From: Promethearchaeota archaeon
GTDB lineage: Archaea > Asgardarchaeota > Lokiarchaeia > Sigyniarchaeales > SOKP01
Direction of reading: 5' to 3'
Length of the DNA: 64,000 bases
Assembly (NCBI GenBank): GCA_016840165.1
Contig: JAEOSU010000070.1
Coordinates: 32,001 to 96,000, forward strand
Positions within the stretch are counted from its first letter, which is position 1. Each line of letters opens with the position of its first letter. The position numbers were made by a program, and so were the translations under genes. The notes under the pieces are model-generated. The model had not been told where the DNA came from. It saw nothing but the letters and a program-made list of their open reading frames with translations, and did not search any database. Below are positions 1-16,679 of this stretch, one piece after another.

Positions 1-938
1 CTTACAACAAGAATATCTCCAACTTCAATTTCTTCGATGGGGATCTCTATTTCTTTTCCATCCTTTAGGAGTGTTGCAGTTTTTGGCTGGAGACCAATAA
101 GTTTCTTTAAAGCTTCAGAAGTTTGGCCTTTAGTCTTATGTTCAAAGTATTTTCCGATTAAGAGGAATGACAAAATCATAGACATTGCTTCGTAGAATGT
201 TTTTCCATCAATAAAAAACGTAGTTAAAATAGAATAAACTAAAGCAGTAGTTGTACCTAGGGCGACTAAGACATCCATATTTGTAGATTTGTTTCTTAAT
301 GATTTATATGCTCCGATAAGGAAGAAGGATCCCGCAACACCATAATTCCCAATAGCCAAGAAAAAGAGGAGTAAATTTCTAATAAAAGACTCAGCTACAA
401 ACCAACTAATTGGTGTAATAACAAGTGTAAATGCTAATGATATGAATAAGATTCGAAGTCGATAATTCATTTCTTTTTTATGCTTTTCAATTTCCTTATC
501 AATCGCACCAGCAGCTTTTTCAATGTCATATCCTAATTTTTTAATGTGTGTATAAACTTTGATCTCATCAATTTTTAATTCATTGAATTCGATAAATAAC
601 TTAGAAGCTGCGAAATTACCACGAACACTGTGTATCCCTTCAATAGACTTCACTTTTCCAACTAATGAATTAAAATTATCCTCGGTGAGTATGTCATTTA
701 CTTTAATATCTACTTTAGCTAGAGTAGATTTATATCCTAAATCTTTTATAGCCTTGTTAAACTCGTCATAGTTGGTTACATCCGAATTATATTCCACTGT
801 AGCCTCTTCATTTGCGAAATTTACCACTGAACTGGAGACTCCTGGCATATCCTTCAGTTTTGTCTCTATTTTTAGCGCACATGATGCACATGTCATGCCG
901 CCTAGCTTAATTTTTATTTTTTCTTCCGTTGATTCCAC
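1..938 (-). CDS. copA: Copper-translocating P1B-type ATPase, N-terminal part (runs off the left edge)
   Basis: Not in the ORF track; translated by hand from GTG at 938 (GGTGA 6 nt upstream). HMA motif GMTCASC, a second degenerate HMA-like domain, TM segments with NMDVLVALGT and LIGKYFE, then KGQTSEALKKLIGLQPKTA and EIPIEEIEVGDILVV. Confidence 0.93.
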   Translation of the reverse strand, partial: MESTEEKIKIKLGGMTCASCALKIETKLKDMPGVSSSVVNFANEEATVEYNSDVTNYDEFNKAIKDLGYKSTLAKVDIKVNDILTEDNFNSLVGKVKSIEGIHSVRGNFAASKLFIEFNELKIDEIKVYTHIKKLGYDIEKAAGAIDKEIEKHKKEMNYRLRILFISLAFTLVITPISWFVAESFIRNLLLFFLAIGNYGVAGSFFLIGAYKSLRNKSTNMDVLVALGTTTALVYSILTTFFIDGKTFYEAMSMILSFLLIGKYFEHKTKGQTSEALKKLIGLQPKTATLLKDGKEIEIPIEEIEVGDILVV

Positions 939-1099
939 ATATATTCACCTTTCATCAAATAATCCTATTATAGTAATAGAAAATGATGTAGAAATAGCTA
1001 CTGATTATAATTTGAAATGATCAAAAGTTTTTTTCGATTATAAGGTTTAAATTTTGATGCTATAATCTATAAATTATTAATGATTCTAAGGGATTCATT

Positions 1100-1486
1100 T
1101 TATTGAGGTTCTTTTTTTGAGTAATATTTTTCAATAGCATCGTGGAGAGCATCAGCTGCCAAATTGCTACAATGGAGTTTTTGGGGTGGTAACCCACCTA
1201 AAGAATTAGCAATATCGTCCCTAGTTATTGTTTTGGCCTCCTCTAAAGTTTTACCTTTAGCTAATTCTGTAATCATCGATGAGGTCGCAATTGCAGCTGC
1301 GCACCCGAATGTCTGGAACGATATATCGTTAATGATATCCTTTCCATTCCTTCTATCCACTTTAATATAGATAAACATGAGATCCCCGCAAATGGGGTTT
1401 CCATATTCGCCACATGCATCTGCATCCTTCATCTCTCCCATATTACGGGGGTTTTTGAAATGATCGAGCACTTTATCGGAGTACAT
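1100..1486 (-). CDS. iscU: Fe-S cluster scaffold IscU/NifU
   Basis: YSDKVLDHFKNPRNMG, NPICGD, FQTFGCAAAIA, LPPQKLHCSNLA (three conserved Cys). Confidence 0.96.
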   Translation of the reverse strand: MYSDKVLDHFKNPRNMGEMKDADACGEYGNPICGDLMFIYIKVDRRNGKDIINDISFQTFGCAAAIATSSMITELAKGKTLEEAKTITRDDIANSLGGLPPQKLHCSNLAADALHDAIEKYYSKKEPQ

Positions 1487-1503
1487 TATCTTTGTAATTT
1501 TAT

Positions 1504-3807
1504 CTAATTTAGAATTAATAATTTTCTCTTTTGAGGTAAAGATACTTTTTCTACGCCTAATTCCTTAACATATTCCACAACTTCAAATAAATTTTTAGCA
1601 GATTGGTGAAAGAAGCATACTTCTTTGGGTTCGAGATTTTCAATCATTTTAGTGAGCTGTTTCTTGTCAGAATGAAGTATGATTTTCAACTGAGGAACAA
1701 ATGTATTTATGAGTAATGCTCTAAAGGGCGCTTTCCATGTTTCTGAGAATTCAATTTCTTCAGCTCCAGAAACTAAAGATAGCCCTGGTTCTTCATGCAC
1801 CGATCCTGCAAGATAAACTAAATTATGTGGATTGCGACCAATAACATTAATGATGTTTCTAATTATTCCATAAGATATATCGGGCGGATGAGAGATGATA
1901 ATGTTATTCTTATTCCTTAAAAATTCTAAATCATCCACGCCAAACCATCGAAATTTGATACTGTTAAAGGGGTTGGCTTTATCACGAATGAGTTTAGAGA
2001 TTGGTCCATATATATATTTATAACGGGTATTTATGACTTGGATGTTTTTCTTTACCATCATATCAACGTAGATGTTAGGGCGTTTTTTAAAGTTTTTTCT
2101 TAATTGTAGCTTTCGGAAATATCTCCAGAAAATCAACATAAAAGTAATTGCTAAACTCGAGGGATCTGCACCAATGAGCACGTTATCTTCATACTCAGCT
2201 TTTTGCTCTAAAAATAATATTAAACTATGAAATGTTTCATTTATATCTCCGTAATCATCCATAGCACAAGTACCATCTATGAGTAAATAATCAATAGGTT
2301 TTGAGATCTGTCCCAGAAATCTTTTTGTTCCAGCAAAAGGAGTTATATCGTAGTAAGTATAATCTCCCGTATATAAAAAGCGAAAATCTTTGACTTTTGC
2401 CAAAATCATTAAAGCTCCAGGCATATGACCAGCATGATAGAAAGAAAGATAACATTCTTTCTCTTTAAAGTCAACTTTAGTACCATTTTCAACATATATT
2501 ACATTACTGACAATCTTTCGATATTCCTCCTCTTCGATTTCAGATTGGGATTCTTGTTTCAAAAAATTAGAATCACGTAGGAGATATAAATCCAAAGTAA
2601 TCCTAGAACAAAGAATAGGGATATCTGGATAATGTTTAATTAATTCCTTTAATCCGGAGATATGATCATAATGAGAATGCGATAAAAATATTGCATCAAT
2701 GCTTGGTTTCGATGTACTATAAGGATTAGCTATACTATCTGAACCATATTTATTAGAAGCTTCTGCATCTTCATGTGATGAATTTTTTAATTCCTCCTCA
2801 AGAAGTTGAGGTAAATCGTCTAAATATTCTGTAATATAGTGGAAATCTCCTTCTTCTTCTGTTTCTTCATTAGGGGGAGTAAAACCACAATCAATTAGGA
2901 TATTTAATTTTCCCAATCCTAAAATATGGGCATTATGATTTGGTTTAAGAATAATTGGATAGATTGTTACCCTAATATCATTTTTATTCGTCTCGTCTGA
3001 AATTAAAGAGATATTTTGAAAATAAGTCTCATCCCATCGTTTTTCAATTTTATCAATAGCTAGTGAGATATCACTTTCTCCAACTGCTACTCCTGTGATA
3101 TAAAAATACCAACCATACTTTTTTACCAGTGATTCTAAATGCTCATACATTATGTCAGCATTTAAAGATTTGATGACAATGACTCTTTCTTTCTCATAAT
3201 AAATAATTTTCCTTATGGATTTCTTTTCTTTCTCTGGAATCAAAGTATTGTTATAAAAAATGTCTTTTATGACCTTTTCAAAATCAGTTTGCGTTATATT
3301 TTGTGATTTCATCAATTTAAAGTATTGGAAATACTCTCTTGTATGATATAGTGAACGCATATTCCTTTTTTGTTTGATGATAATCGAAAGCTCATCATAC
3401 TCAAACAAATCTTTAGATATTGTAACTTCTTCTCCTTTTTTTTCTTTCTTTTGTTCTTTCTTTTTTTCGCTTTTCTTAGTTTTATCAGTTTCAGAGACAA
3501 AAAAAAACCAACCATACTCTTTAACCAATTTCTCTCTGTTCCAGATTATTTGTTTACCAGATTTAGTGACCATGATTATAATTCTATCTTCTGGATTGTA
3601 AATGATCTTTGATATAGAAGCTTTAGTTTTTTCAGAAATTATATTGCTTGATAAAAAAAAGTGTTTTAAAACTTCGTGCACATCTTTTTGAGGAATTTCC
3701 TCCTTAATCATATATTCTAAATGCCTTTTATATGACTTGATTTTAAATTGTGAAGTTAACTTTTTCTTTTCAATAAGTGGTATTTTTTTAAATTCCTCAA
3801 TGTGCAT
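1504..3807 (-). CDS. Beta-CASP metallo-beta-lactamase ribonuclease, divergent aCPSF1-like, with two degenerate KH-like N-terminal repeats
   Basis: IDCG, HSHYDH, AGHMPG, YTGDY, DGT, LHSD and FFHQ motifs; duplicated N-terminal unit ending LVK(E/K)YGW(F/Y)F(F/Y). Confidence 0.8.
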   Translation of the reverse strand: MHIEEFKKIPLIEKKKLTSQFKIKSYKRHLEYMIKEEIPQKDVHEVLKHFFLSSNIISEKTKASISKIIYNPEDRIIIMVTKSGKQIIWNREKLVKEYGWFFFVSETDKTKKSEKKKEQKKEKKGEEVTISKDLFEYDELSIIIKQKRNMRSLYHTREYFQYFKLMKSQNITQTDFEKVIKDIFYNNTLIPEKEKKSIRKIIYYEKERVIVIKSLNADIMYEHLESLVKKYGWYFYITGVAVGESDISLAIDKIEKRWDETYFQNISLISDETNKNDIRVTIYPIILKPNHNAHILGLGKLNILIDCGFTPPNEETEEEGDFHYITEYLDDLPQLLEEELKNSSHEDAEASNKYGSDSIANPYSTSKPSIDAIFLSHSHYDHISGLKELIKHYPDIPILCSRITLDLYLLRDSNFLKQESQSEIEEEEYRKIVSNVIYVENGTKVDFKEKECYLSFYHAGHMPGALMILAKVKDFRFLYTGDYTYYDITPFAGTKRFLGQISKPIDYLLIDGTCAMDDYGDINETFHSLILFLEQKAEYEDNVLIGADPSSLAITFMLIFWRYFRKLQLRKNFKKRPNIYVDMMVKKNIQVINTRYKYIYGPISKLIRDKANPFNSIKFRWFGVDDLEFLRNKNNIIISHPPDISYGIIRNIINVIGRNPHNLVYLAGSVHEEPGLSLVSGAEEIEFSETWKAPFRALLINTFVPQLKIILHSDKKQLTKMIENLEPKEVCFFHQSAKNLFEVVEYVKELGVEKVSLPQKRKLLILN

Positions 3808-3927
3808 TAATTTATGATATACACAAAATAAAATAATGGTTTCGATTTAGTAGAAAGTGTTGTAATTTAATCTTCGAATGAGTGATTAGAAAAAGTAATA
3901 AAAAAATCTAGATGATGAATTTAAATT

Positions 3928-4506
3928 TTATACTTTCTTTCTCTTGTATAATTGCCAATGAAGCCTTTCTTTTGGAGGAAAATTACCTCCTTTAACAGAA
4001 CTCACTTGTTCTATTGAGATAAAGGCTTTGGGATTTATTACTCTAATGATACTCAATACTTTAGGGAGATTTTTTCTCTTAATTACAAGCAAAACTAATC
4101 TAACAATACCTTTTGTACCCTCTGCGGTCATTGTCGTCAATCCATAACCCTTTTCTTTTAACGCTTTAATTAACTCATCCGGATTTTCTTTAACAATTAA
4201 TTGAAGGTTTAATAATCCAATGGAAATTTTTTGCTCAATAATCAAACCTACATAATTTCCCATAGCAAATCCTCCTGCATATGCAAAATAATAAATGAAA
4301 TTAGTTAAATCACTGAAGATTTGACCGATAGCAAGTAGCCAAATCATAATTTCGAAAAAACCCACTAAAGGAGCTAGCTTTTTCTTGCCTTGTGATATAA
4401 AAACAATGCGAAGCGTACCTAAAGATACATCCCCTACTCGAGCAATAAAAATTAGTATTGGCAGAATTACCAACGAGAATATGAAATTTTCATACAAATT
4501 TATCAT
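3928..4506 (-). CDS. DUF2179/UPF0316-type membrane protein
   Basis: ARVGDVSLGTLR, GFFEIMIW, AYAGGFAMGNYVG, GYGLTTMTAEG and INPKAFI, all typical of this family. Confidence 0.85.
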   Translation of the reverse strand: MINLYENFIFSLVILPILIFIARVGDVSLGTLRIVFISQGKKKLAPLVGFFEIMIWLLAIGQIFSDLTNFIYYFAYAGGFAMGNYVGLIIEQKISIGLLNLQLIVKENPDELIKALKEKGYGLTTMTAEGTKGIVRLVLLVIKRKNLPKVLSIIRVINPKAFISIEQVSSVKGGNFPPKERLHWQLYKRKKV

Positions 4507-4618
4507 AGGAACTTACACCTTAAATTATAAAATATTTTTATTGAAAATCGATTCCATATTCTTTTCCCTATTTATTAGGTTCTCATTTATAAAATATTGA
4601 TTCTATATTAAATATATT

Positions 4619-5251
4619 TTATTTTTCATGTGCTTTTTCTATCTCATCTTTTAAATTTACGAGCTCAATTTTAATCTTATCTGTTTCATCTTTTAATTTA
4701 CGCCATTCTTGTTCAATTATGTTACAATCTTTTGTCAACTTTTCTTTATCTAAGTCATTGCAAGCGTTCTCCAATTTTTCTCTTGTTAAATCTAATTCTT
4801 CTCGTTTTTGATTTAACATTGATTCTAAAGCCTTTAAACCCTCTTCTTTAATTAAGATTTCTTTTAAAATCAATTCATTTTTGTCCATATCGATTAGTTC
4901 CTCAATTCTAGTGAGATAACGTTTGATGGGAGTCAGATTAATTTCTTTTGAATCTTCATTCTTAAAAAATAAACCAATATTACTGTCTTCCCCTAATTTC
5001 ACTAAAATAATTGTCACTTCTTCCATTTCAACTATGAGTTTTTTATAATCTTCTGGTTTAAACAGACAGATATCATTGATTTTTCGAGCATTATGTAAAA
5101 TTTTTGCTAATGTTTCTCCCAATTTAGGGATATTAGTTTCTTGTTCAAATGTGGACTGAAAAATCATACCATTATTATAAAACATAATGATATGAACCAC
5201 TTCTGGTAATGCGGCTTTAATCCGAACAATATTTTTAAATACTATATTCAA
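4619..5251 (-). CDS. Roadblock/LC7-like domain with C-terminal coiled coil
   Basis: Helix, two strands (HIIMFYNNGMIFQST), helix, three strands (KLIVEMEEVTIILVKLGEDSNIGLFF), then about 90 aa of E/K/L heptads; directly abuts the upstream permease stop. Confidence 0.68.
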   Translation of the reverse strand: MNIVFKNIVRIKAALPEVVHIIMFYNNGMIFQSTFEQETNIPKLGETLAKILHNARKINDICLFKPEDYKKLIVEMEEVTIILVKLGEDSNIGLFFKNEDSKEINLTPIKRYLTRIEELIDMDKNELILKEILIKEEGLKALESMLNQKREELDLTREKLENACNDLDKEKLTKDCNIIEQEWRKLKDETDKIKIELVNLKDEIEKAHEK

Positions 5252-6703
5252 TCACCCATAGAAAGTAGCTCTAATTCTACTTATTATATAATCGATTATT
5301 TTATTAACTTTTTTGATACCAGATTTTTTAAGGAGAAAGAAGATAATGATTATTAAAAGGATCACTAAGATAATTAATATTCCAATAGAGAAATTGAAAA
5401 TAAGCGTATAATAAATGGAAACTATTATTAGCTGATAGGTTGTAGTAAAGAATCCAATTTTAAAAAATTGCTTAAAACTGATTGGTCTTTTGTTTGCTTC
5501 AGCTATTTGAACAACTAGTATATTATCTCCTAAGGGAGTAAGATTATCACCCCAATTAGCTCCTATTGCTAAGCTGTAGTAAAATTGGTCACCATTAGTT
5601 GGAGGAAATTTACTTGAAATGGTTCCTATGACCGGAATTAAAACTTTGGTTATAGGAATATTATCTATTGTACTACTTAAAAATGCAGAAATCCATAGAA
5701 TGATAAGTACTTGAAAATAGAGATCTCCACCAGAAAGGTTAGCCATCATATCTCCAAGAAGTTGCACCACTCCGAGGAGTTCAAGACCACCTGCAATAAC
5801 GAAGATCCCTAAGAGATATAAAATCAATTCTAAATCTATTTTAGAGATTATCTCTTTTACTTCAATTCTACTAATCAATATTAGGATGAGGGCAATAATT
5901 AATGCTATTATATCAGTTGTTAACAATGATGTTGGAATGATAATAAACATGATAAATAAAATGATCAATGAAAATATTGATTTTAGTAATAAAGTCTTAT
6001 TTGGGACGAAATTCCACACATTAAATTCTCTCAGAACCTTGATTCCTTCTTGAGGAATTTCTAATGCCTTTTTAAACACAAAAATAAAGAGTAATAGTGT
6101 AAAAGCAAATATCACCAATGAAATGGTCCCAACATTCAGAAAGAAATCTATAAATTGAATTTCAGCATAATTACTTATCAATATGTTTGGTATAGAGGAT
6201 ATAGTAAAAAGTGTACCTCCAATATTTACTAAAATCGCTTGAGTGAGAATATATGGAGAAGGGTTTACATTTAAAATGCGAGATACCGTGATTGTAAGAG
6301 GTATTAGAATTATAACTGTTAAAATGTTATTCAACACCGCTGATATTAGAATAGTAATAAAGCAGAAAATAGACATTAGATAAAGAGGTTTTCCTTTTGA
6401 TAGCTTAATCAAATTTAAAGCAAAAAATTGAAAAAGCCCTGCTTCATTTGAAATTTGTACGATAAACATCATAGCGATTATTAGAATAAGCGAATGTAAG
6501 TTTACAAAACCTTCACTTTCAGATCCAAATAAAAGTTCAATGATTACTTTAAAATCCATACCCTCTAAAAATGTTAGCGTTAGGTATACGATTATGGCTC
6601 CTATTAATGCAGCTACTGCTCGATTCAATTTTTCAGTAACAATAAGAAGGATTACTCCAATAAAACATCCTAAAACGATTATGACACTAAGTATCATTAC
6701 CAA
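5252..6703 (-). CDS. ArsB/NhaD (IT superfamily; P-protein/OCA2-like) permease
   Basis: About 12 TM helices; SAVLNNILT, NIGGTLFTISSIPNI, STIDNIP, ANWGDNLTPLG. The true start may be the ATG at 6697. Confidence 0.85.
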   Translation of the reverse strand: MVMILSVIIVLGCFIGVILLIVTEKLNRAVAALIGAIIVYLTLTFLEGMDFKVIIELLFGSESEGFVNLHSLILIIAMMFIVQISNEAGLFQFFALNLIKLSKGKPLYLMSIFCFITILISAVLNNILTVIILIPLTITVSRILNVNPSPYILTQAILVNIGGTLFTISSIPNILISNYAEIQFIDFFLNVGTISLVIFAFTLLLFIFVFKKALEIPQEGIKVLREFNVWNFVPNKTLLLKSIFSLIILFIMFIIIPTSLLTTDIIALIIALILILISRIEVKEIISKIDLELILYLLGIFVIAGGLELLGVVQLLGDMMANLSGGDLYFQVLIILWISAFLSSTIDNIPITKVLIPVIGTISSKFPPTNGDQFYYSLAIGANWGDNLTPLGDNILVVQIAEANKRPISFKQFFKIGFFTTTYQLIIVSIYYTLIFNFSIGILIILVILLIIIIFFLLKKSGIKKVNKIIDYIISRIRATFYG

Positions 6704-6796
6704 TTCATCATTTAATTTTTTCTATGAGACTATCATAAAGTTCTGTAAAATAAAAACCTATTTTTTATTTAAAAATAAAAGAAGGCAAATATTAAT

Positions 6797-7462
6797 TTAA
6801 AACAATTTTGATAATTTCACAAGATCAATGGGTCCTTTAATATTGATTAAACTGACTAAATTTTTATCTATGGGTTGTATTTTCTCTTCTACAGAAACAT
6901 AATTGATGTTCCAACTTTTATCGATTAAATTCATTAATCCATAATTTTCATTCGTCAAAATTTCTTTTGCCTTTTGTAATCCTTTTTTAACAGGATAGAT
7001 AGATAAATATGGTTCTAAAAATCCATTTTTCCAGCGTGGAATAACGCATTCATAGCCCTCCGCTTGGTCAATCATAAGCGTAATAACTTCAGGCCTAATT
7101 AAAGGTATATCACAAGAGAAGAGAAAGGCTTTTTTAAAGTTCGCTCTCGATAACTCTTGAAATCCTGAAAAAATTCCAAGCATAGGTTTATATATATTCG
7201 GATGTTGAAATAAACTGCGGTCATCGACAATAAATGTGACCGCTTTAGGAAATTCGATTTCTTTTCTATATTGAAAGATTTGTTCTTCTGAATGGGCAAC
7301 CAGAAAAATATCTTGATCAAATTTTGCTAATGTCTCTATTTGATGTAAAATTAAAGGTTTCCCTAACAATTCTACTATTGCTTTCTCTGTTCCAAAACGA
7401 GTGCTTTTACCTCCAACTAATATTAAAATAGCTAAATCCTTTGAGTTATTTTCGTCAGCCAT
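6797..7462 (-). CDS. mobA: Molybdenum cofactor guanylyltransferase
   Basis: ILVGGKSTRFGTEKA, FSCDIP, LEPY, LININ-like terminal motif (LINIKGPIDL). Confidence 0.88.
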   Translation of the reverse strand: MADENNSKDLAILILVGGKSTRFGTEKAIVELLGKPLILHQIETLAKFDQDIFLVAHSEEQIFQYRKEIEFPKAVTFIVDDRSLFQHPNIYKPMLGIFSGFQELSRANFKKAFLFSCDIPLIRPEVITLMIDQAEGYECVIPRWKNGFLEPYLSIYPVKKGLQKAKEILTNENYGLMNLIDKSWNINYVSVEEKIQPIDKNLVSLINIKGPIDLVKLSKLF

Positions 7463-7596
7463 AACATTAAATATAAATAATTCGAATATATTTGTTTTGA
7501 ATAAAGAAGAAGCGTTTGAAAAAATTTTTTCTTAATTTACTCTTAGGATATATGAATCAAAGAGGGAATATTTGATAGACTTATAACATAATATTG

Positions 7597-7782
7597 TTAA
7601 TAATCATCATCTATATCGTCGTCATCGTCAATATCTTCATCCCAATCCTCGTCCTCATCCTCGTAATCATCATCGAAATCACCATCATTATCTTCATCCC
7701 AATCCTCGTCATCATCGATATCTTCATCCCAATCTTCATCGTCTTCATCTTTCTCCATATCAAGATCATATTCTAGCTCCAT
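7597..7782 (-). CDS. 61-aa hyper-acidic low-complexity peptide with three EDWDED motifs
   Basis: ATG at 7782 with GGAGA 7 nt upstream. MELEYDLDMEKDEDDEDWDEDIDDDEDWDEDNDGDFDDDYEDEDEDWDEDIDDDDDIDDDY has 44 of 61 residues D/E. Synonymous GAT/GAC and GAA/GAG variation points to coding constraint rather than a microsatellite. Confidence 0.7.
   Translation of the reverse strand: MELEYDLDMEKDEDDEDWDEDIDDDEDWDEDNDGDFDDDYEDEDEDWDEDIDDDDDIDDDY
7630..7745. repeat. Three imperfect copies of ATCTTCATCCCAATC(C/T)TC (EDWDED codons)
   Basis: Copies begin near 7633, 7690 and 7720. Confidence 0.8.
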
Positions 7783-8163
7783 ATCTTTCTCTCCTTTTTT
7801 TTTTATTCTTTTAGTATTATTAAAGTTATTATAATCAATTACAATAAAAATCAATATCAATATTTAAATATTTCTATATAAACTAGCGATTTTTAAAGTG
7901 TATTCCCTATTGTAGACTTACAAAAACTTTAAATAGAATTATAGGTATAATATTGTTTAATAAATCTAATAAAATTAAATAGATTTGTTATCAAAAAATA
8001 AAGCCAAAAAAGGAAAATAGAAAAAACTGTTGATGAGAGAGATACTTTACATAATTTTATTAATTTTTAGGCAAAGATTGTCTTATTCTATTGACATTTT
8101 TGTAAATCTGATTTTTTAAAAGTTTATGTATTTAAAATTACAAATTTAAATTAGCAAGAATAG

Positions 8164-10101
8164 ATGACAGAAAAACTAAATATTAATACATTGGGGAAAA
8201 AAAATCCTATTCGTAATCTGAATAACAAACCCATTTGTTTAGGTCCTATCGCAGATTTAGAGGAATATGTGAAAAAAGATTGGTGGAAAAAGATCTTTAA
8301 TGCATATTACTTAAAGACTGACGGGGATGTGGTTGAGGATCAATTAATTACAGAGCATGAAATTAGAATCTTTTCAGATATACTGAAATTGAAACCAGAA
8401 GAGCATATTTTAGATCTATGCTGCGGTCAAGGGCGACATAGTATTGAATTAGCAAGAAAAAGTTTTGAAAATGTTGAGGGTTTAGATAGATCCCATTATT
8501 TAATTCAGAAAGCGCGTGTTAATGCCAAAAAGAATGGTTTAATTTGCAAATTTCGTGAGGGGGATGCAAGAAAACTTCCTTATATCACTGATAATTTTGA
8601 TACTATCATGATCTTAGGTAATAGTTTTGGTTATTTTGAATCAATTAATGATGATTTTCGTGTATTAAAAGAGTCATTTCGAGTACTTAAACCATGGGGA
8701 AGAATTCTAATCGATATTACTGATGGAACTTATCTACGGAATAATTTCCAACAGCGTTCTTGGGAATGGATAGATAAGAATTTTTTTGTTTGTCGAGAAC
8801 GTTCCTTGTCTATGGATAAGCAACGATTGATCTCACGAGAGGTAATTACCCATGTAAATAAAGGAGTACTTGTCGATCAATTCTATGCTGAAAGATTATA
8901 TTCAATTGAAGAGATTACTGAAATTTTAGAAAAAGCAGGATTTAGCGAGATAACTTTTCACGGTAATTTATCACCCAATTCGCAGAAAGATCAAGATTTA
9001 GGGATGATGGAACAAAGAATTATTGTATCTGCTGTTGTTAAGAAAGAATGGACTCAAAAAGCTAAGAGATTACGAGCAGTTGATAAAAATATAATAGTTC
9101 TACTTGGAGATCCCCATAAACCTGATATTTTAAAGCCTTCTACTATTTTTGATGATGATGACTTTTACACTATTACACAATTAAAAGCAGCCCTTCAAGA
9201 GTTGAAAGGATATAATTTTATTTATATTGACAATCATGACATATTGATACAGGAATTGACCAAATTAAAAGGAAAAGTGGATTATGTATTTAATTTATGC
9301 GATGAGGGTTACTTTAATGACGCTTGTAAAGAACTACATATTCCTGCAATATTAGATATCTTGAAATATCAATATACGGGTTCTGGTCCTCAATGTTTAG
9401 CATTCTGTTATGATAAGTCTTTAGTTCGAGGCGTTGCAAAAGATTTAAACGTTCCCGTTCCTGAAGCGATTGTTTTGAAGCCAACTGATAAAATTATTGA
9501 TCTACCCTTATATTTTCCTGCAATTGTAAAGCCAAATTATGGTGATAGCTCCTATGGTATTACACAAGCCAATGTAGTGTCGAATGGGGAAGAATTACTA
9601 AATGCTGTACGTGATATCAGAGACAGGTTTGGTTATAACAATTCCATTCTAATAGAACAGTATTTAACAGGTAAAGATTTAACCATCGGAATCATTGGCA
9701 ACCCACCGTACGAGTATGTTGTTCTGCCAATACTGGAAGAAGATTATTCCTCATTACCTTCGGGATTACCTAAAATTTGCGGGTATGAGGCAAAATGGCT
9801 TCCTGATTCACCTTATTGGAACCTAAAGTCTATTCAAGCAGAACTTAAGCCAGAAGTTGTAGAAATTATTGAATCATGCTCCTTAAGACTTTTTGAACGA
9901 CTGGAATGCAAGGATTATGCCCGATTTGACTGGAGACTAGATTCTGAGGGAAATCCGAAGCTACTTGAAGTTAATCCCAATCCTGGTTGGTGTTGGGATG
10001 GGCATCTCGCAAAGATGGCAAAATATGCCGGAATGTCATATAAGGATATGCTTCAAAATATTCTTGAGGCAGCCGAGAAAAGATATGGAATAGAGAAATA
10101 G
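8164..10101 (+). CDS. Class I SAM methyltransferase fused to a D-Ala-D-Ala-ligase-like ATP-grasp domain
   Basis: N-half ILDLCCGQGRH, GLD, EGDAR, GNSFGYF, LKPWG; C-half VFNLCDEG, YTGSG, FPAIVKP..GDSSYGI, IEQYLTG, YARFDWR, LEVNPNPG. Confidence 0.9.
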   Translation: MTEKLNINTLGKKNPIRNLNNKPICLGPIADLEEYVKKDWWKKIFNAYYLKTDGDVVEDQLITEHEIRIFSDILKLKPEEHILDLCCGQGRHSIELARKSFENVEGLDRSHYLIQKARVNAKKNGLICKFREGDARKLPYITDNFDTIMILGNSFGYFESINDDFRVLKESFRVLKPWGRILIDITDGTYLRNNFQQRSWEWIDKNFFVCRERSLSMDKQRLISREVITHVNKGVLVDQFYAERLYSIEEITEILEKAGFSEITFHGNLSPNSQKDQDLGMMEQRIIVSAVVKKEWTQKAKRLRAVDKNIIVLLGDPHKPDILKPSTIFDDDDFYTITQLKAALQELKGYNFIYIDNHDILIQELTKLKGKVDYVFNLCDEGYFNDACKELHIPAILDILKYQYTGSGPQCLAFCYDKSLVRGVAKDLNVPVPEAIVLKPTDKIIDLPLYFPAIVKPNYGDSSYGITQANVVSNGEELLNAVRDIRDRFGYNNSILIEQYLTGKDLTIGIIGNPPYEYVVLPILEEDYSSLPSGLPKICGYEAKWLPDSPYWNLKSIQAELKPEVVEIIESCSLRLFERLECKDYARFDWRLDSEGNPKLLEVNPNPGWCWDGHLAKMAKYAGMSYKDMLQNILEAAEKRYGIEK

Positions 10102-10132
10102 TTTAATTTAATCATGTTTTTTATATGGTTAT

Positions 10133-11428
10133 ATGGATCTAATTCTTTTAATATTCATTTTTATTATATTTGGAATCATATTAATTAGTTATTCCTCAAA
10201 AAATATAGATTTCGTTGCGATTTCTCTTTTAGGATGCTTTTTAGCGGGATTTATCACCGGTGTCGTGTACAATCTATCTTTTTGGGATTTTATTAATTTT
10301 ATAGAATTTGATGCAATTATTATTATTTTAAGTATGAGTATTATTACAAAGATTGCACAAGATTCAAATATTTTAGAATATTTGGCTGTTAAGCTCTTTA
10401 AAGTTTCAAAAGGTAATCGAAGAGTATTTCTTTATATGATTTGTTTTATCACCACGATTCTTGCGGCGATTATAAATGATGTGATTGTAGTATTGATTTT
10501 AGGTCCCGTGGTGATACGTTTATGTCGATTTTTAAAGATTAGATCCGGTACATATTTGCTGGGAATGACGATATGCATAAATATAGGTAGTATTATAACA
10601 CCTTTCTCAAGCGGAGAAAATATTATTATTTCTACTGCTTTTTCATTAGATACTGTCTATTTTATAACTAATTATTGGATTTTTTCATTTTTCCTCTTGT
10701 TTATTACTATCTATCTCATAGATAGATTTATTTTAAGAAAAGAACCCGCGATTGAAGAACAACAAAAGCAATTTGTTTTAGAACTAGTAAATACAGATGT
10801 AATGATCTCTAATCGCAAGATGTTCTATATAAATAGCATTGGAATCATAGTTACAATTGTACTTTTTGCTATTTTACCATTATTATACCTTACTGCGGCT
10901 TTCGCGGCTTTTACCTTAGCGTTAATTAACATTAAATTTACCAAAAAGAAAACAATTGACCTATTGAAAGATGTAGAATGGGAAATCATTTTTTTCTTTA
11001 TATCTTTATATGTAGTAATTGGATGTTTATTAGAAGCAGGCTTTGAAGAACTTTTTACAGGTATTCCTTTTGGGACATTAGATCCATTCATAGTAAGCTT
11101 TATTATTCTACTACTTGTAAGCTTAATTTCTGGTTTTGTTGCCAACACTCCAACAGCTTTGATTTTTATTCCTATTGTCTCATTATTAATTAATGAGGGA
11201 TTTCCCTCTGTTCCTTTATTTTTCGCATTTATAATAAGTATTAATCTCGGAGGCAATCTAATACCACAAGGAGCTGCTTGTGACATGATGACCTTAAAAA
11301 TCGCACAAAATAATGCTGTAGAAAATCTCAATTTCAAGCGCCTTTTAAAAGTAGGAGCCACATTTGCAATTATCCATGTTGGACTATCAATAGGTTATTT
11401 ATTTCTCTTAACATTATTCACAGGATAA
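10133..11428 (+). CDS. Second ArsB/NhaD (P-protein-like) permease
   Basis: Multi-TM; AIINDV, NIGSIITPFSSGENI, SGFVANTP, NLGGNLIPQG; 31 nt downstream of the MTase-ATP-grasp gene. Confidence 0.85.
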   Translation: MDLILLIFIFIIFGIILISYSSKNIDFVAISLLGCFLAGFITGVVYNLSFWDFINFIEFDAIIIILSMSIITKIAQDSNILEYLAVKLFKVSKGNRRVFLYMICFITTILAAIINDVIVVLILGPVVIRLCRFLKIRSGTYLLGMTICINIGSIITPFSSGENIIISTAFSLDTVYFITNYWIFSFFLLFITIYLIDRFILRKEPAIEEQQKQFVLELVNTDVMISNRKMFYINSIGIIVTIVLFAILPLLYLTAAFAAFTLALINIKFTKKKTIDLLKDVEWEIIFFFISLYVVIGCLLEAGFEELFTGIPFGTLDPFIVSFIILLLVSLISGFVANTPTALIFIPIVSLLINEGFPSVPLFFAFIISINLGGNLIPQGAACDMMTLKIAQNNAVENLNFKRLLKVGATFAIIHVGLSIGYLFLLTLFTG

Positions 11429-11438
11429 TGAAAGAGAT

Positions 11439-12635
11439 CTAACTTTTCTCTTCTTTAAGAGGAGAGAGTTTCCTTAATCGTTGGACAATGGGAGGAAGTT
11501 TTTCAAGAAAATAGTTAATCTCCTCTTCGGTAGTAAACCTACCCAAGGTAATTCTTAGCGAACCATGTGCATCTTGGGGTTTTAGTCCAATAGCGAGTAA
11601 TACGTGTGATGGTTCTAATGATTTCGAAGAACATGCAGAACCTGTAGATACTCCAATCCCTTCAAAGTCTAAATCTAATACCATTGATTCTCCTTCAATA
11701 TATTGAATCGAAACGTTCACATTATTTGGAAGGCGCTTTGTAGGATGTCCATTTAGGAAACAATGATCAATATTTTCAGTAAGGTTATGTATAATTTTAT
11801 CCCTTAGAGCAGTTAATCGCTTAATTTCTTCAGGCATTTCTTTTTTTGCTAAATCTAAAGCTTTCACAAAAGCAGATATTCCTGGTACATTAACAGTGCT
11901 CGGACGTAAGTCTCCCTCATGACCTCCACCATACATTAATGGTTGGATATATTTTCCTCTTCCTTCTCGAATGCCTTTATTTCGGATATACAACATACCC
12001 ACTCCTTTTGGACCATAAATTTTATGGGCGGAAGCAGATAATAAGTCAATATTTAACTTATTTACATCAATTGGTATTTTTCCTAATGCTTGAACAGCAT
12101 CGGTATGAAAAATAATATTATGCTCTTTAGCAATTGTTCCAATCTCTTTAATTGGCTCTATAGTTCCAATTTCATTATTAGCAAACATAATACTTATAAG
12201 AATCGTCTTATCAGTGATGGTATCTTCTAATTGCTTCGTATCGATTAATCCATATTTATCGACCGGCAAAAAAGTAATTTCGAAACCATTTTTCTCCAAA
12301 TATTCGCAAGGCTTCTCGATCGCATGATGCTCAATAGAGCTGGTGATAATATGATTACCATGCCTTCTATTCTTTAATGCCACTCCCATTATAGCTAAAT
12401 TATCTGATTCAGTACCTGAAGACGTGAAAAAAATATCATTCCGCTCTGCATTTATTAAAGAAGCAACAAGTTCACGTGATTCAACTAAACTTTTTGCAGC
12501 TTTTTGACCCATCGAGTGCAAACTCGAGGAATTGCCATAATATTCATTTATACTATTTTTGTAGACCTCTATAACCTGGGGATCCATAGGTGTAGTTGCC
12601 GCATAATCTAAATACACATATTTGGACTCATTCAC
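11439..12635 (-). CDS. iscS: Cysteine desulfurase IscS/NifS (group I)
   Basis: YLDYAATTP, TSSGTESDN, SAHKIYGPKG (PLP Lys), STGSACSS (catalytic Cys). Confidence 0.96.
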   Translation of the reverse strand: MNESKYVYLDYAATTPMDPQVIEVYKNSINEYYGNSSSLHSMGQKAAKSLVESRELVASLINAERNDIFFTSSGTESDNLAIMGVALKNRRHGNHIITSSIEHHAIEKPCEYLEKNGFEITFLPVDKYGLIDTKQLEDTITDKTILISIMFANNEIGTIEPIKEIGTIAKEHNIIFHTDAVQALGKIPIDVNKLNIDLLSASAHKIYGPKGVGMLYIRNKGIREGRGKYIQPLMYGGGHEGDLRPSTVNVPGISAFVKALDLAKKEMPEEIKRLTALRDKIIHNLTENIDHCFLNGHPTKRLPNNVNVSIQYIEGESMVLDLDFEGIGVSTGSACSSKSLEPSHVLLAIGLKPQDAHGSLRITLGRFTTEEEINYFLEKLPPIVQRLRKLSPLKEEKS

Positions 12636-12749
12636 GATTCATCACTATAAGTATTAATTAATATTAAATTCACTTATATTCTTAAAATTAATATTAGATT
12701 TTATATTGTTAATATAATTCTTATAAAAATATTTTAAAAGGGAAAACAT

Positions 12750-13304
12750 ATGTTTAAGCTCTTATGGGGAATTACAGGAACTGGATATGTATTAGATGAA
12801 TCTATTGCCCTCATGGAAGATTTACAGAGCAATCATGAGATAAATATCACGGTAATACTTTCAAAGGAAGGAGCCGCAGTGGTTAAATGGTATAAAAAAT
12901 GGTTAAAATTGACTGAAACAGTCAAGAAAGTATCCATCGAGAAAACACCTAATATTCCGTTTTATGCGGGACCGGCGCAGATTGGAAAGTTCGATTTTTT
13001 TCTCGTATGTCCAGTATCCGCGAATAGTGTTGCCAAGATAGTATATGGACTTGCTGATACGTTAATTACTAATTGTGTTGCCCAGGCGATTAAGGGAGGC
13101 CAAAAAGTATACATTTTTCCCTCAGACCAAGATACTGAACCAATTGTGACTACTAGACCTGATGGAAGCCCATTAGTATTAAAGATTCGAGATATCGAGT
13201 TAGAAAACATCAAACGATTAAATCAATTGGAAGGTATCCATGTAATTTCCAACTTTTCTGAGATTAAAGAGCTTATTTTAGATGCACTCAAAGTAAAAGA
13301 ATAA
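12750..13304 (+). CDS. afpA: Archaeoflavoprotein AfpA (HFCD-type flavoprotein)
   Basis: WGITGTG, CPVSANSVAKIVYGLADTLITN, IFPSD, RDIELEN. Confidence 0.82.
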   Translation: MFKLLWGITGTGYVLDESIALMEDLQSNHEINITVILSKEGAAVVKWYKKWLKLTETVKKVSIEKTPNIPFYAGPAQIGKFDFFLVCPVSANSVAKIVYGLADTLITNCVAQAIKGGQKVYIFPSDQDTEPIVTTRPDGSPLVLKIRDIELENIKRLNQLEGIHVISNFSEIKELILDALKVKE

Positions 13305-13306
13305 TC

Positions 13307-13334
13307 ACAGCATTGCTCAACATTAAAATGCTGT
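13307..13334. terminator. 8-bp perfect inverted repeat filling the gap between convergent afpA and ferredoxin genes
   Basis: ACAGCATT-N12-AATGCTGT; function as terminator or stability hairpin is inferred. Confidence 0.4.
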
Positions 13335-13336
13335 AC

Positions 13337-13867
13337 TCATGATTTATACATTACTGGTTTAATAGCACCCTCAGGGCATAATAACTCGCATTTCAAACAT
13401 CCTTGACATTTTGCTATTTCTTTAAACTTGTATCGAATTCCAGTAATTTCTTTATCTCCCTTATGAATTTTTCCTAAATAAAACAAGTTTTTCGGACAGA
13501 ATTTACCACTATCTTCTAAACAAATACCGCACATATTGCATAATTCATGGTCAACTTTAATAGAAACAACCTGTTCTGGAACTGTCACGGAGGTGACTTC
13601 AATTGCATTGCGAGGACAGACAAGAACACAATTCAAACATGCCTTGCATTTCGAATAATCTACTTTTCTAATACTATTTTCGAAATAGATGGCTTCTGCC
13701 TTACAAGCTTTAACACAACGTTCGCAATGTAGACATAACTCTTGATTTATCTGAACGGGAACAAACTTTTCCTTAAAAGTAATAACCTCCCATTTACTAA
13801 TCTGATTTAGAAAATAATTGATTAAAAATAAACTTAGATCTAATGTAATATAAATTAATAATATCAT
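13337..13867 (-). CDS. Polyferredoxin with four 4Fe-4S motifs; true start probably near 13783
   Basis: CLHCERCVKAC, CKACLNCVLVCP, CNMCGIC...FCP, CQGCLKCELLCP. The first ~27 codons look like AT-rich non-coding sequence, and GGAGGT lies near 13785-13790. Confidence 0.88.
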   Translation of the reverse strand: MILLIYITLDLSLFLINYFLNQISKWEVITFKEKFVPVQINQELCLHCERCVKACKAEAIYFENSIRKVDYSKCKACLNCVLVCPRNAIEVTSVTVPEQVVSIKVDHELCNMCGICLEDSGKFCPKNLFYLGKIHKGDKEITGIRYKFKEIAKCQGCLKCELLCPEGAIKPVMYKS

Positions 13868-13912
13868 TTGATAAAAAATAGGAAAAAAAAAAATTTGGGA
13901 TACTTACACAGA

Positions 13913-14716
13913 TTATTGAAAATATTGAGTATAGCGTTCTTTAGGTTCTTGGGGTAATTGTTGCTGTCTCTGATATTGCTGAGCTTTTTCAGCCAACTCT
14001 AACATCTTAGCTTTAATCTCCTTCCCTTCTTCTATGAGCTTAGAAGTTTCTATATTTAAACTATAAATTTGATTCAATACTTCAATAATAGAAGCAGCAC
14101 CTTCCGGGGTAGGGATCTCTAATACCGGAGTAAATAGGGCATAAGCTCTTAGCTTATTAGTTAGAGCTTCATTAAGGATTGTAGCTTCAGGGCCAACAAT
14201 AATTCCCTTGTCTACTTTTTCCAAACCGTATTGCTCCAATCTGCCCATCACTTCCTCTTCAGCAGCATAATAGACAGGATAATCATCAATAATCCCTCTT
14301 TGGGGGATTCCCTGAAAAATTAAGACCTCTTTAGCTTTCACATCTTCTGATAATAACCAATTAGTTATTGTTTTGCTTAGATCATTATATGCCGTGGAAA
14401 CTTGAAATGGAACTTCTACAATTCCCACTATTAGATTATGCTGAGGAGAGTAATATAATCTGAATGGATGCTTTAAGACTCCCTGATAAAAAACAGAAAT
14501 TGGAGGAAGATATTCAGAGGTCACGAACCCAATTTCTTTAATATCTGGGATCTGTTCAATTAAAGCATTAGCTACGATAGGTCCGATTAATCCCACACCA
14601 GCAAATCCTAGTATCATAGTGGCTCCCTCCTTTATTTCAGTTTGTAAATCTTCGATGATCAGAGTGCTTCTTTTACCCTTTTCGCAAATATATTCCTTTT
14701 TAACCATAATCAACAC
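13913..14716 (-). CDS. PAC2-family proteasome assembly chaperone (Pba-like)
   Basis: GFAGVGLIGPIVAN, LPPIS, HPFRLY, PTPEGA, LIEEGKEI; ends in YFQ. Confidence 0.88.
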   Translation of the reverse strand: MLIMVKKEYICEKGKRSTLIIEDLQTEIKEGATMILGFAGVGLIGPIVANALIEQIPDIKEIGFVTSEYLPPISVFYQGVLKHPFRLYYSPQHNLIVGIVEVPFQVSTAYNDLSKTITNWLLSEDVKAKEVLIFQGIPQRGIIDDYPVYYAAEEEVMGRLEQYGLEKVDKGIIVGPEATILNEALTNKLRAYALFTPVLEIPTPEGAASIIEVLNQIYSLNIETSKLIEEGKEIKAKMLELAEKAQQYQRQQQLPQEPKERYTQYFQ

Positions 14717-14922
14717 ATGTAATTAAATGAATTTTAGGATATCTATTTGATATAGATAAAAATTATTTTATTACTATACTTAGTGAATAATTCGCTATAA
14801 AATTTGATCTCTTATAAATATTCAATTTTATAACAGATATTAATAAAAATGATAAAATAAACTATTAAAAAATCAAAGAATTATAAATAATAGAATTATT
14901 CAATTATTTTAATAGGTGAAAA

Positions 14923-15720
14923 ATGCTTCTAGAACTTAGGAATGTAACTATTCCCACTGAAGACAAAAAATGTGTTATTGTAAACAATATTTCTTTCGGT
15001 ATTAAAGAAAAATCTATTCACGCTATAATTGGTCCAAATGGGTCAGGTAAAAGTACACTTGCTTACACCATTATGGGCTTAGAAAATTATAAGATAAGCC
15101 AAGGACAGATTTTGTTTGATGGGAAAGATATTTCTGATATGAATATCACCGAAAGGGCTAAATTAGGGATTACCTTAGCCTGGCAAGAACCTGCAAGAAT
15201 AGATGGTCTATCGGTATTGAAATATATTTCTTTAGGAATGAAAGATAAGTTAAATCTTGTAAAACAGGTAAGTGAAACTTTAAAAATTGTCAATTTAGAA
15301 CCAGAAAGATATATTAATCGAAAGATAGATGAATCCCTAAGTGGTGGTGAACGAAAACGTATAGAACTTGCTGCCGCAATCGCCATGAAACCACGATTAA
15401 TCATCCTTGATGAGCCAAGTGCTGGTTTGGACTTTATCGTTATCGAAGATTTTATGAATATCTTTGCGAAAATAAAAAAATTGGATATGACTGTACTTCT
15501 AATAACTCATCGTGAAGATGTGGGATTGGTAGCAGAATATGGTACTCTTCTTTGGCGAGGTGATCACATTATAACTGATGAATTTCCTAAAGTAATGCTT
15601 AGATATTGTGCTAAAGCAGGACTTCGAGAATTTTGTAAAAGAACTCTATATAAGAATGGTGCTGCTTGTTTTGACGAGGATTATATTGAAAGAATTTTTC
15701 GGGAGGAAAGTACATCATGA
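14923..15720 (+). CDS. sufC: SufC-like ABC ATPase of the minimal SMS Fe-S system
   Basis: GPNGSGKSTLA, LAWQEP, LSGGERKRIELA, LDEP, LITH; three Cys in the C-terminal tail; ATGA overlap with the sufB-like gene. Confidence 0.88.
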   Translation: MLLELRNVTIPTEDKKCVIVNNISFGIKEKSIHAIIGPNGSGKSTLAYTIMGLENYKISQGQILFDGKDISDMNITERAKLGITLAWQEPARIDGLSVLKYISLGMKDKLNLVKQVSETLKIVNLEPERYINRKIDESLSGGERKRIELAAAIAMKPRLIILDEPSAGLDFIVIEDFMNIFAKIKKLDMTVLLITHREDVGLVAEYGTLLWRGDHIITDEFPKVMLRYCAKAGLREFCKRTLYKNGAACFDEDYIERIFREESTS

Positions 15721-16679
15721 GTAAAACTGAATATCCTGAAGAAATCTTACAAAGTCTTGAAGATTATAACATTGATATTCGAGATTTCATGCCAGGTCAT
15801 GGAAAAGGTGCCAAATTACTACTTAATTTCAACAAAATTTCCGGAATAGAACAAGTTGAGGGAATAATCTTACAAGGAAAGGAAATTCCAAATGGAATTA
15901 TTGCTGATGTTATAATCAAAAAGGGAACTAAACATGAGGAACCAATACATCTTTGTTTTGGTGTAAATAAAGAGTCGGGAATCCAAGAGATTTTTCCAAG
16001 AATTATCGCTGAAGATAATACCGATGTTAAAATTCAAGCACATTGTAGTTTTCCAAATGCAGATGGATTGATTCACAAAATGTTCGGTCATTTCTATGTA
16101 GGAAATAATTGTAATTTCGAATATAGCGAGACTCATTATCATGGAGAGAAGAGTGGAGCATTAGTTGCTCCAGTAGGTTATATGTATATCGGTGAGAATA
16201 GCGTTTTTGTTAATAATTTTAATTTGACGAAAGGTACTCCAGGTCAGGTAAAAATTCTAATTGATATCTATGCTATGAAAAACAGTGTGATAAAGTCAAA
16301 TATTAGAGCGTTCGGAAAAAATAAACATGATTCAATACGAATTCGAGATTCTGTATTCCTTGAAGGTGAAAGGGCAAGAAGCATTATAAAAATGAAAGCT
16401 GCAGCACGAGATGGTGGTGAAGTCTTGATGTATGGTGTAACAGAAGGAAATGCACCATATACAAATGGACATGTGGAGTGCAGCGAAATTGTTTTGGGGC
16501 AAGGTTCGATCTGTAGGGCACGTCCATTTATTAGAGCTACAGATCCCACATCAAGTGTTTCCCATGAAGCTTCTTTAGGAAGATTCCCTCAAAAATGGTT
16601 GAATGAGTTACAAGCAAAAGGTTTGACCGAAGAAGAGGCCACCGATATCTTAATCCAAGCAATGTTAGGTGAAGAGTAA
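15717..16679 (+). CDS. sufB: SufB/SufD-family scaffold (SmsB-like)
   Basis: PIHLCFG, AHCSFPNA, ETHYHG, GHVECSEIV, SHEASLG, LQAKGLTEEEA. Confidence 0.88.
   Translation: MSKTEYPEEILQSLEDYNIDIRDFMPGHGKGAKLLLNFNKISGIEQVEGIILQGKEIPNGIIADVIIKKGTKHEEPIHLCFGVNKESGIQEIFPRIIAEDNTDVKIQAHCSFPNADGLIHKMFGHFYVGNNCNFEYSETHYHGEKSGALVAPVGYMYIGENSVFVNNFNLTKGTPGQVKILIDIYAMKNSVIKSNIRAFGKNKHDSIRIRDSVFLEGERARSIIKMKAAARDGGEVLMYGVTEGNAPYTNGHVECSEIVLGQGSICRARPFIRATDPTSSVSHEASLGRFPQKWLNELQAKGLTEEEATDILIQAMLGEE

Follow-up and report, generated by a model that had tools for sequence, protein, structure and literature searches.

A conserved methyltransferase/ATP-grasp ligase fusion in Lokiarchaeia, a candidate ligate-and-N-methylate enzyme with an acidic miniprotein as neighbor

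A stretch of 64,000 nucleotides (nt) of Promethearchaeota archaeon DNA (GenBank assembly GCA_016840165.1, contig JAEOSU010000070.1), which at its full length is called the window here and whose positions serve as coordinates, encodes a protein in which a methyltransferase is fused to a ligase resembling D-Ala-D-Ala ligases (Ddl). The fusion is a slowly evolving, accessory gene that has moved horizontally between domains of life, and we propose that it is a bifunctional enzyme of small-molecule metabolism. Divergently upstream lies the gene for a short acidic, tryptophan-containing protein (the miniprotein), and permease and other genes flank the pair. A prediction made earlier from the letters of this DNA (the original prediction) had listed these genes, and all of its open reading frames (ORFs) lie where it had placed them; it had further taken them for a candidate new multigene system. 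The features of the locus are as follows.

8164-10101, + strand: methyltransferase/Ddl-like fusion, 645 amino acids (aa), analyzed by Pfam/NCBIfam, PDB profile search, AlphaFold2 (AF2), Foldseek, and conservation in 90 orthologs
Domains of the fusion: disordered N-terminal tail, aa 1-23; NmbA-like methyltransferase with four-strand cap, aa ~25-295; Ddl-type ATP-grasp ligase, aa ~305-645
7597-7782, - strand: acidic Trp miniprotein gene, 61 aa from its ATG
7783-8163: divergent intergenic region, 381 nt, AT-rich, presumed bidirectional promoter region
10133-11428, + strand: perm2, a CitMHS/ArsB-type permease, 31 nt past the fusion
6797-7462, - strand: MobA-like nucleotidyltransferase (NTP_transf_3), downstream of the miniprotein gene and on the same strand
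5252-6703, - strand: perm1, a second CitMHS/ArsB-type permease and distant paralog of perm2
4619-5251, - strand: Roadblock/LC7-fold protein with a C-terminal coiled coil (AF2 and Foldseek)
3928-4506, - strand: small membrane protein with DUF5698 and DUF2179 (UPF0316-type)
11439-12635, - strand: NifS-like cysteine desulfurase, the right-hand border of a presence/absence block

Pfam and NCBIfam place class I methyltransferase domains at residues ~47-290 of the fusion and Dala_Dala_lig_C at residues ~449-635; the Pfam ligase matches are Dala_Dala_lig_C and a weak ATP-grasp_4 only, with neither RimK (PF08443) nor TTL (PF03133) among them. In the AF2 model, which has a mean predicted local distance difference test (pLDDT) score of 85.5, residues ~305-645 form a complete three-subdomain Ddl fold, with template modeling (TM) scores of 0.81 to 0.84 to Ddl structures in Foldseek, and in the PDB profile search VanA and Ddl match at E=1e-24 to 1e-35. 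Residues K418, K456, the DSS serines, the lysine of YEAKW, R587, D589, E602, and N604 are conserved across the 90 orthologs, and the fusion keeps the equivalents of DdlB K97, K144, S150, K215, R255, D257, E270, and N272, the ATP/Mg2+ and acyl-phosphate machinery; these correspondences, like those that follow, come from sequence alignments and not from pocket geometry. The fold and the ATP/Mg2+ residues are thus common to the fusion and to Ddl and VanA (DdlB, 2DLN/1IOW; VanA, 1E4E; Bacillus anthracis Ddl, 3R23), whereas the D-Ala-specific residues are not: Y216 of DdlB is a tryptophan in the fusion (YEAKW), S281 and L282 are G613 and H614 within an invariant NPNPGWCWDGH, and the N-terminal GGxSxE motif of Ddl has become GDPxKPD...FDDDDFY. 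The best NCBIfam Ddl score is 134 bits against a cutoff of 243. The C-terminal half is, as far as sequence goes, an amide-forming ligase with intact predicted catalytic residues and not a D-Ala-D-Ala ligase. The original prediction had argued that it cannot be a cell-wall Ddl, and the replaced D-Ala residues, the scores far under the cutoffs, and the archaeal and fungal hosts without peptidoglycan all bear this out. We note that related ligases also occur in other arrangements. A lokiarchaeial protein of 1,210 aa (P0144) joins leucine-rich repeats to a Ddl-like ligase of the fusion's clade, 54% identical to residues 300-643 of the fusion, without a methyltransferase, and genomes of family f3 carry, besides the full fusion, a stand-alone Ddl-like paralog about 50% identical to the ligase half, in G090 at a distance of about 3 kb from the fusion (L131, G090:C257) and in G130 on a separate contig.

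In the methyltransferase half, the S-adenosylmethionine (SAM) motifs are intact, and the best solved relative is NmbA (9ri2; E=9e-35, profile positions 23-273 against residues 14-263), the only solved methyltransferase that aligns over both the cap and the Rossmann core (123 bits versus at most 82 for the others). NmbA (CT1040; PDB 9RI2), a stand-alone protein of 266 aa, was shown biochemically in 2025 to be a bacillithiol N-methyltransferase whose target is the alpha-amine of the cysteinyl group; a four-strand cap gives it a narrow 'basket', with conserved arginines in the cleft, and it co-occurs with bshABC, for whose products BshA, BshB, and BshC its authors found no homologs in archaea (PMC12719100). 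Cap strands are present at residues 198-244 of the fusion model, the alignment with NmbA takes in the N-terminal aromatic strand, and two of the NmbA cleft arginines align with the invariant R213 and R244. The single-sequence match is distant, at 77 bits, and identity, judged by eye, is below the 35% that the authors set as threshold for NmbA orthologs. Both proteins are class I SAM methyltransferases with a four-strand cap, and NmbA is N-directed, acting on an aminoacyl alpha-amine of a small molecule; the fusion differs in probably lying outside the authors' ortholog cluster and in being joined to a ligase. The methyltransferase half is best described from these alignments as a full-length but distant homolog of NmbA, probably a paralog rather than an ortholog, and the homology suggests that what this half N-methylates is the amine of an aminoacyl group in a small molecule.

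Homologs that are 70 to 93% identical to the fusion occur across Promethearchaeota and other Asgard lineages, and identities of 62 to 68% are found in about 20 bacterial phyla and in other archaea, including Planctomycetota, Atribacterota, Sumerlaeota, Thermotogota, Cloacimonadota, Chloroflexota, Spirochaetota, Nitrososphaerota, and Methanosarcinaceae. At least 554 species genomes carry a relative, and fungi have relatives too, in zoosporic lineages (Paraphysoderma, Quaeritorhiza) and in one branch of Ascomycota; of the full-length representatives in a library clustered at 50% identity, only one exceeds 55% identity to the fusion (P0121, 60%). Within the class, the fusion is present in 80 of 151 genomes, and within the genus in 22 of 39, several congeners without it being 97 to 100% complete. 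In a phylogeny built with FastTree, all Promethearchaeotal sequences form one well-supported clade, and those of Odin, Jord, Nitrososphaerota, 'Halobacteria', and methanogens are scattered among bacterial phyla along a very short backbone, a pattern that we read as horizontal transfer of a strongly constrained gene. Literature searches returned no characterized member of the family.

The miniprotein is 72% Asp plus Glu, contains three E/D-D-W-D-E-D motifs, ends in Tyr, and has no Cys or His. A GGAG motif lies 8 to 11 nt before its ATG, its Asp and Glu codons are mixed (GAT, GAC, GAA, and GAG), and its orthologs at L005, L007, L009, and L011 all have 45 codons, no insertions or deletions, three invariant Trp residues, and an excess of third-position changes. 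In its own 3.6-Mb genome, the double [DE]2-W-[DE]2 motif occurs once, and only two ORFs of 30 aa or more reach 50% Asp plus Glu. Judged by these features, the acidic Trp ORF is a real gene and not a chance occurrence. A DNA pattern for two W-D-E-D motifs, run over the 151 genomes of the class with a reversed-pattern control that gave zero matches, was found in 25 genomes, 24 of which carry the fusion (compared with 80 of 151 overall), and in 19 of them the motif is divergent and within ~1 kb upstream of the fusion. Among 40 fusion loci that were fetched, 25 have an acidic Trp ORF no more than 1.1 kb upstream (5/10 in genus g1, 17/19 in g2, 2/2 in g3, and 1/1 in g6); it is divergent in g1 and g2 and co-directional, at -92 to -544 nt, in g3 and g6, such that the adjacency outlived an orientation flip while MobA, permease, and PAN-type proteasome-activating ATPase genes came and went. 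The miniprotein C-termini vary and are not conserved in sequence, and in 20 of 26 an acidic run is followed by a final Tyr or Phe. No miniprotein was seen near the fusion at g5, g11, g12, f3, f4, Odin, and Jord loci or at essentially all bacterial loci, and the motif is present in one genome that lacks the fusion. The original prediction had offered the peptide as a substrate or carrier of the enzyme: the gene is indeed real and nonrandomly linked to the fusion in the Lokiarchaeial family, but the enzyme mostly occurs without such a peptide.

Other copies of the miniprotein lie away from the fusion, beside peroxiredoxin and amidase genes, a DUF255 thioredoxin-like gene, genes for a HEAT protein and an ADP-forming acetyl-CoA synthetase, and a BNR protein gene; in G125, a site that lacks the fusion has a copy flanked by nifS and a MobA-like gene. 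The own genome has a second paralog (G000:C39:3-128, - strand; L139), with a Lys-rich N-terminus and an acidic core, at a contig edge beside a BNR-repeat protein gene, and further off-site paralogs occur in G093, G094, G125, G013, and G022. Searches with eight miniproteins found no Pfam family at E<=10, and a PDB sequence search likewise gave no match at E<=10. Outside the clade, a short acidic ORF lies 222 nt upstream of the fusion on the same strand in Chloroflexia (L056:9633-9722, + strand) and another 5.7 kb from it in Nitrososphaeria (L067:3919-4059, - strand); these ORFs, which end in -DEY or -EEF, are within chance expectation (~0.5 expected).

Neighbors of the fusion were surveyed by unsupervised clustering in 80 loci and by Pfam tallies of the first, second, and third neighbors in 66 non-Loki loci, and neither set yielded a universal partner gene. 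There is no conserved multigene system; the permeases, MobA, and the roadblock protein are local synteny. The system claimed by the original prediction is not sustained, with no conserved partner in the 66 non-Loki loci and with the company of permeases, MobA, and roadblock protein limited to g1 and g2, and of the recurrence that it had proposed to look for near other homologs, the acidic ORF is found at 25 of 40 family loci but the ArsB/NhaD permeases are not conserved outside a few genera. What surrounds the fusion elsewhere is diverse. In Pirellulales and Phycisphaerae it lies inside the ffh-rpsP-trmD translation operon, abutting trmD (L027, L042, L049, L061, L064, L074, L075, and L079), and in many g2 loci the gene for a PAN-type AAA ATPase follows it after 25 to 39 nt on the same strand (L005:11891-13111, L107-L119), a position at which PAN is not found in the window. 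Genes translationally coupled to the fusion in bacteria encode a RimK-like ligase, ATPgrasp_ST ligases, an M32 carboxypeptidase, an MFS transporter, and an aldo-keto reductase, and second Ddl-like genes and GGACT-like genes are also near it in some loci; the recurring theme is amide-bond chemistry and transport. The DUF5698/DUF2179 gene is the only neighbor that recurs beside the fusion across bacterial phyla, being within 2.7 kb in 4 of the 66 non-Loki loci (Aminicenantes, Nitrospira, Cloacimonadota, and an unclassified bacterium) by hidden Markov model search, against a rough single-copy expectation of ~0.1. It lies just beyond the range that the original prediction had marked (4619-11428); that prediction had named neither this gene nor the full-length NmbA homology, nor the extreme cross-domain conservation of the fusion together with its patchy distribution shaped by horizontal transfer. 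A link of the fusion to membrane transport through this UPF0316-type protein and the permeases is possible but weak. A polyamine link was considered and set aside as weak, spermidine synthase accounting for 2 of 131 second and third neighbors. The own genome, which is 99.7% complete, gave no match to PF01564 (spermidine synthase) in a search in which control genomes gave matches, and its polyamine and hypusine metabolism may be unusual.

Five congeners without the fusion have the gene order bCASP-mobA-nifS-flavoprotein-ferredoxin, with mobA directly adjoining nifS, and the fusion, acidic ORF, perm1, roadblock, and DUF2179 genes were not found in them. This co-absence is only suggestive, because the five genomes may form a single clade and hence represent one event. 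MobA is kept beside nifS in these genomes (58% identity) and is therefore not part of the module. The two permeases are ~27% identical to each other and both of CitMHS/ArsB type within the ion-transporter superfamily, with Pfam CitMHS scores of 155 and 180 bits against a cutoff of 31.9; their ArsB-specific NCBIfam scores are far under the cutoffs, so by this test they are not arsenite pumps. Perm2 is probably co-transcribed with the fusion in the window; at 16 of 29 g1 and g2 loci it is found no more than 3 kb past the fusion, and at no locus outside these genera, and congeners without the fusion have a perm2-like gene, 64 to 65% identical, elsewhere in the genome. Perm1 is near the fusion only in part of g1, g2, and g6, and its paralogs in the five fusion-less congeners are only 24 to 29% identical; the roadblock gene is likewise rarer than perm2. 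The roadblock protein has no Pfam match, and the name that had been given to it from its sequence is upheld by its AF2 model (pLDDT 80), in which an N-terminal Roadblock/LC7/MglB fold is followed by a coiled coil of ~100 aa and which matches the Asgard structures 9jue and 7f8m and MglB in Foldseek with TM scores of 0.67 to 0.75 (E 6e-8). The intergenic region at 7783-8163 has no Rfam family match at E<=0.1, and no riboswitch was found upstream of the fusion in 12 long-leader loci or within positions 1-16000 of the window. Farther to the left, the gene for a 767-aa metallo-beta-lactamase/beta-CASP protein (1504-3807, - strand) has an internal duplication within its N-terminal ~240 residues: in tblastn, the matches of residues 1-215 and of residues ~130-238 to the orthologous beta-CASP genes overlap in the coordinates that they cover.

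The explanation that we favor, with a probability of roughly 55%, is that the fusion is a self-contained bifunctional ligate-and-N-methylate enzyme that makes a small metabolite. The Ddl-type domain would couple an amino acid, or a carboxylate like it, to an accepting amine by way of an acyl-phosphate, and the NmbA-like domain fused to it would then N-methylate the free amine of the aminoacyl product. Such a metabolite, small, N-methylated, and aminoacyl or dipeptide-like, would be built from common precursors, which would explain the lack of conserved partner enzymes, and the Lokiarchaeial miniprotein would more likely be a co-regulated or accessory partner than an obligate substrate. Several points weigh against this explanation. 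Only the parallel with BshC and then NmbA suggests the order of the two steps, the substrate and the product are those that we infer, and the model, with a predicted TM score (pTM) of 0.57, does not firmly place the methyltransferase and ligase domains relative to each other. For an enzyme that acts on small molecules, a cross-domain identity of 62 to 68% is unusually high, and a macromolecular substrate that is itself conserved would also account for it. Persistence of the miniprotein's adjacency despite the g3/g6 flip, together with its loss along with the fusion, suggests a functional tie. Further points against the favored explanation are the placement in the Planctomycetota ffh-rpsP-trmD operon, the occasional bacterial coupling to RimK-like ligases and carboxypeptidases, and the existence of the P0144 paralog with leucine-rich repeats.

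An alternative that draws on several of these points is that the miniprotein is the substrate or carrier, in which case the Ddl-type domain would extend its C-terminus or its Asp/Glu side chains by an amino acid and the methyltransferase would act on the newly added amine. The adjacency in 25 of 40 loci, in four genera and both orientations, argues for it, as do the 24 of 25 motif genomes with the fusion (80 of 151 overall) and the absence of the peptide together with the fusion at the syntenic site. The aromatic ending of 20 of 26 peptides, a Tyr or Phe preceded by an acidic run, is reminiscent of the -EEY of tubulin, and the genes for RimK-like ligases and M32 carboxypeptidases with which the fusion is coupled in bacteria, the leucine-rich-repeat ligase paralog, and the -DEY and -EEF acidic ORFs of the Chloroflexia and Nitrososphaeria loci are consistent with it. 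Those two out-of-clade ORFs are, however, no more than chance would give, no such peptide was found near the 62 to 68% identical enzyme in about 20 phyla, and about a third of the class loci are without it. Moreover, the paralogs lie beside unrelated genes, one motif genome lacks the fusion, and the C-terminus of the peptide is variable; the Ddl-type ligase retains its omega-loop, all characterized members of its family use small substrates, and NmbA, the closest homolog of the methyltransferase half, likewise has a small molecule as its substrate. We consider this alternative unlikely, and slightly more so its specific form for the Lokiarchaeial enzyme, in which the acidic tail of the miniprotein would be aminoacylated by the Ddl-type domain and the residue gained in this way N-methylated by the NmbA-like domain.

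More doubtful is a transport-coupled pathway, in which an osmolyte or metabolite made by the fusion would be moved by the two flanking permeases and the six genes would form one unit. The gap of 31 nt between the fusion and perm2 suggests co-transcription, the linkage of perm2 in 16 of 29 g1 and g2 loci and the joint absence of perm1, roadblock, and DUF2179 genes from the five fusion-less congeners would agree with it, a distant CitMHS permease gene lies 1.2 kb downstream of the fusion in two 'Halobacteria' metagenome-assembled genomes, and DUF2179 recurs in four bacterial phyla, with CorA (three times), MscS (twice), and MFS also among the neighbors. Set against this, the permeases are absent at the fusion loci of g3 to g12, f3, f4, Odin, Jord, and 64 of the 66 non-Loki loci, a perm2-like gene persists without the fusion, PAN or other genes often intervene between the fusion and perm2, MobA stays where the fusion is absent, and the five congeners may reflect a single event in one clade. 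It is somewhat less probable again that the product is an undescribed N-methylated low-molecular-weight thiol, with the ligase adding cysteine to an acceptor and the NmbA-like domain methylating the cysteine amine. Homology to NmbA is full length, including the cap and the cleft arginines, and the scheme parallels BshC followed by NmbA; to our knowledge, the thiol cofactors of most lineages that carry the fusion are not known. But the NmbA match is distant by bit score and by identity, redox genes are not consistently near the fusion, and nothing singles out cysteine. That the protein is an ordinary D-Ala-D-Ala (or D-Ala-D-X) ligase fused by chance to a methyltransferase is highly improbable: Ddl and Van ligases are the best Pfam, NCBIfam, and PDB matches of the C-terminal half, but the scores are far under the NCBIfam cutoffs (134 bits against 243), the residues that bind the second D-Ala are replaced, Tyr216 being Trp, and the hosts include archaea and fungi without peptidoglycan.

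Comparison with known systems places the favored ligate-and-N-methylate enzyme among several analogies of differing closeness. LysW and LysX, which had been put forward as a parallel, share with this locus a small protein with an acidic Trp segment (the LysW tail is EDWGE) beside an ATP-grasp ligase gene, but the miniprotein lacks Cys and His, a zinc-ribbon domain, and a conserved C-terminal Glu, its C-termini vary, the ligase belongs to Dala_Dala_lig_C and not to RimK, no LysY-, LysZ-, LysJ-, or LysK-like enzymes are present, and the neighbors are MobA, permeases, and PAN. The mycosporine enzymes MysB and MysD, also suggested before, fare no better as a model for the pathway, there being no DDGS/EEVS (MysA) or MysC gene in the window region or among the neighbors in 80 loci. 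RimK and TTL are ATP-grasp enzymes that act on acidic C-terminal tails, and most miniproteins end in -EEY, -DDY, or -DFF, comparable to the -EEY of alpha-tubulin; the fusion differs in belonging to another ATP-grasp subfamily and in being widespread without the peptide, and modification of the peptide is here a proposal. In Ngg (GNAT plus ATP-grasp, for the osmolyte N-acetylglutaminylglutamine amide [NAGGN]), in MysB/MysD, and in beta-lactone pathways with cryptic methylation, a group-transfer enzyme works with an ATP-grasp ligase, or is fused to one, to make a small modified dipeptide-like metabolite; these are functional analogies, and we claim no homology past the superfamily level. DsyGD of dimethylsulfoniopropionate synthesis was considered as a precedent for a methyltransferase with ATP-grasp and discarded, as its second domain is ureidoglycolate-lyase-like (PF04115). 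The miniprotein itself resembles DSS1/Sem1, a disordered partner of the proteasome and BRCA2, in size, acidity, and a W-x3-W-[DE]-D pattern, and PAN lies downstream of the fusion in many g2 loci. The DSS1 motif is WEDNWDD. Homology of the miniprotein to DSS1/Sem1 or LysW is rejected, neither Pfam nor the PDB giving a match at a threshold as loose as E<=10, and the likeness to DSS1 is a resemblance only.

The fusion is a striking conserved protein, with 645 residues that remain more than 60% identical from Asgard archaea to Nitrososphaerota, Planctomycetota, Atribacterota, and numerous further phyla and that are nonetheless dispensable in one genus. The 2025 finding on NmbA supports a testable chemistry for it, namely amino-acid ligation and then N-methylation of the amine, and its product could be a widespread new metabolite, whether a thiol, an osmolyte, or a signaling dipeptide. 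If instead the miniprotein is the target, archaea would have a new chemistry for editing protein tails, recalling the tyrosination of tubulin or carriage by LysW, and, if true, such tail editing would sit in the closest prokaryotic relatives of eukaryotes.

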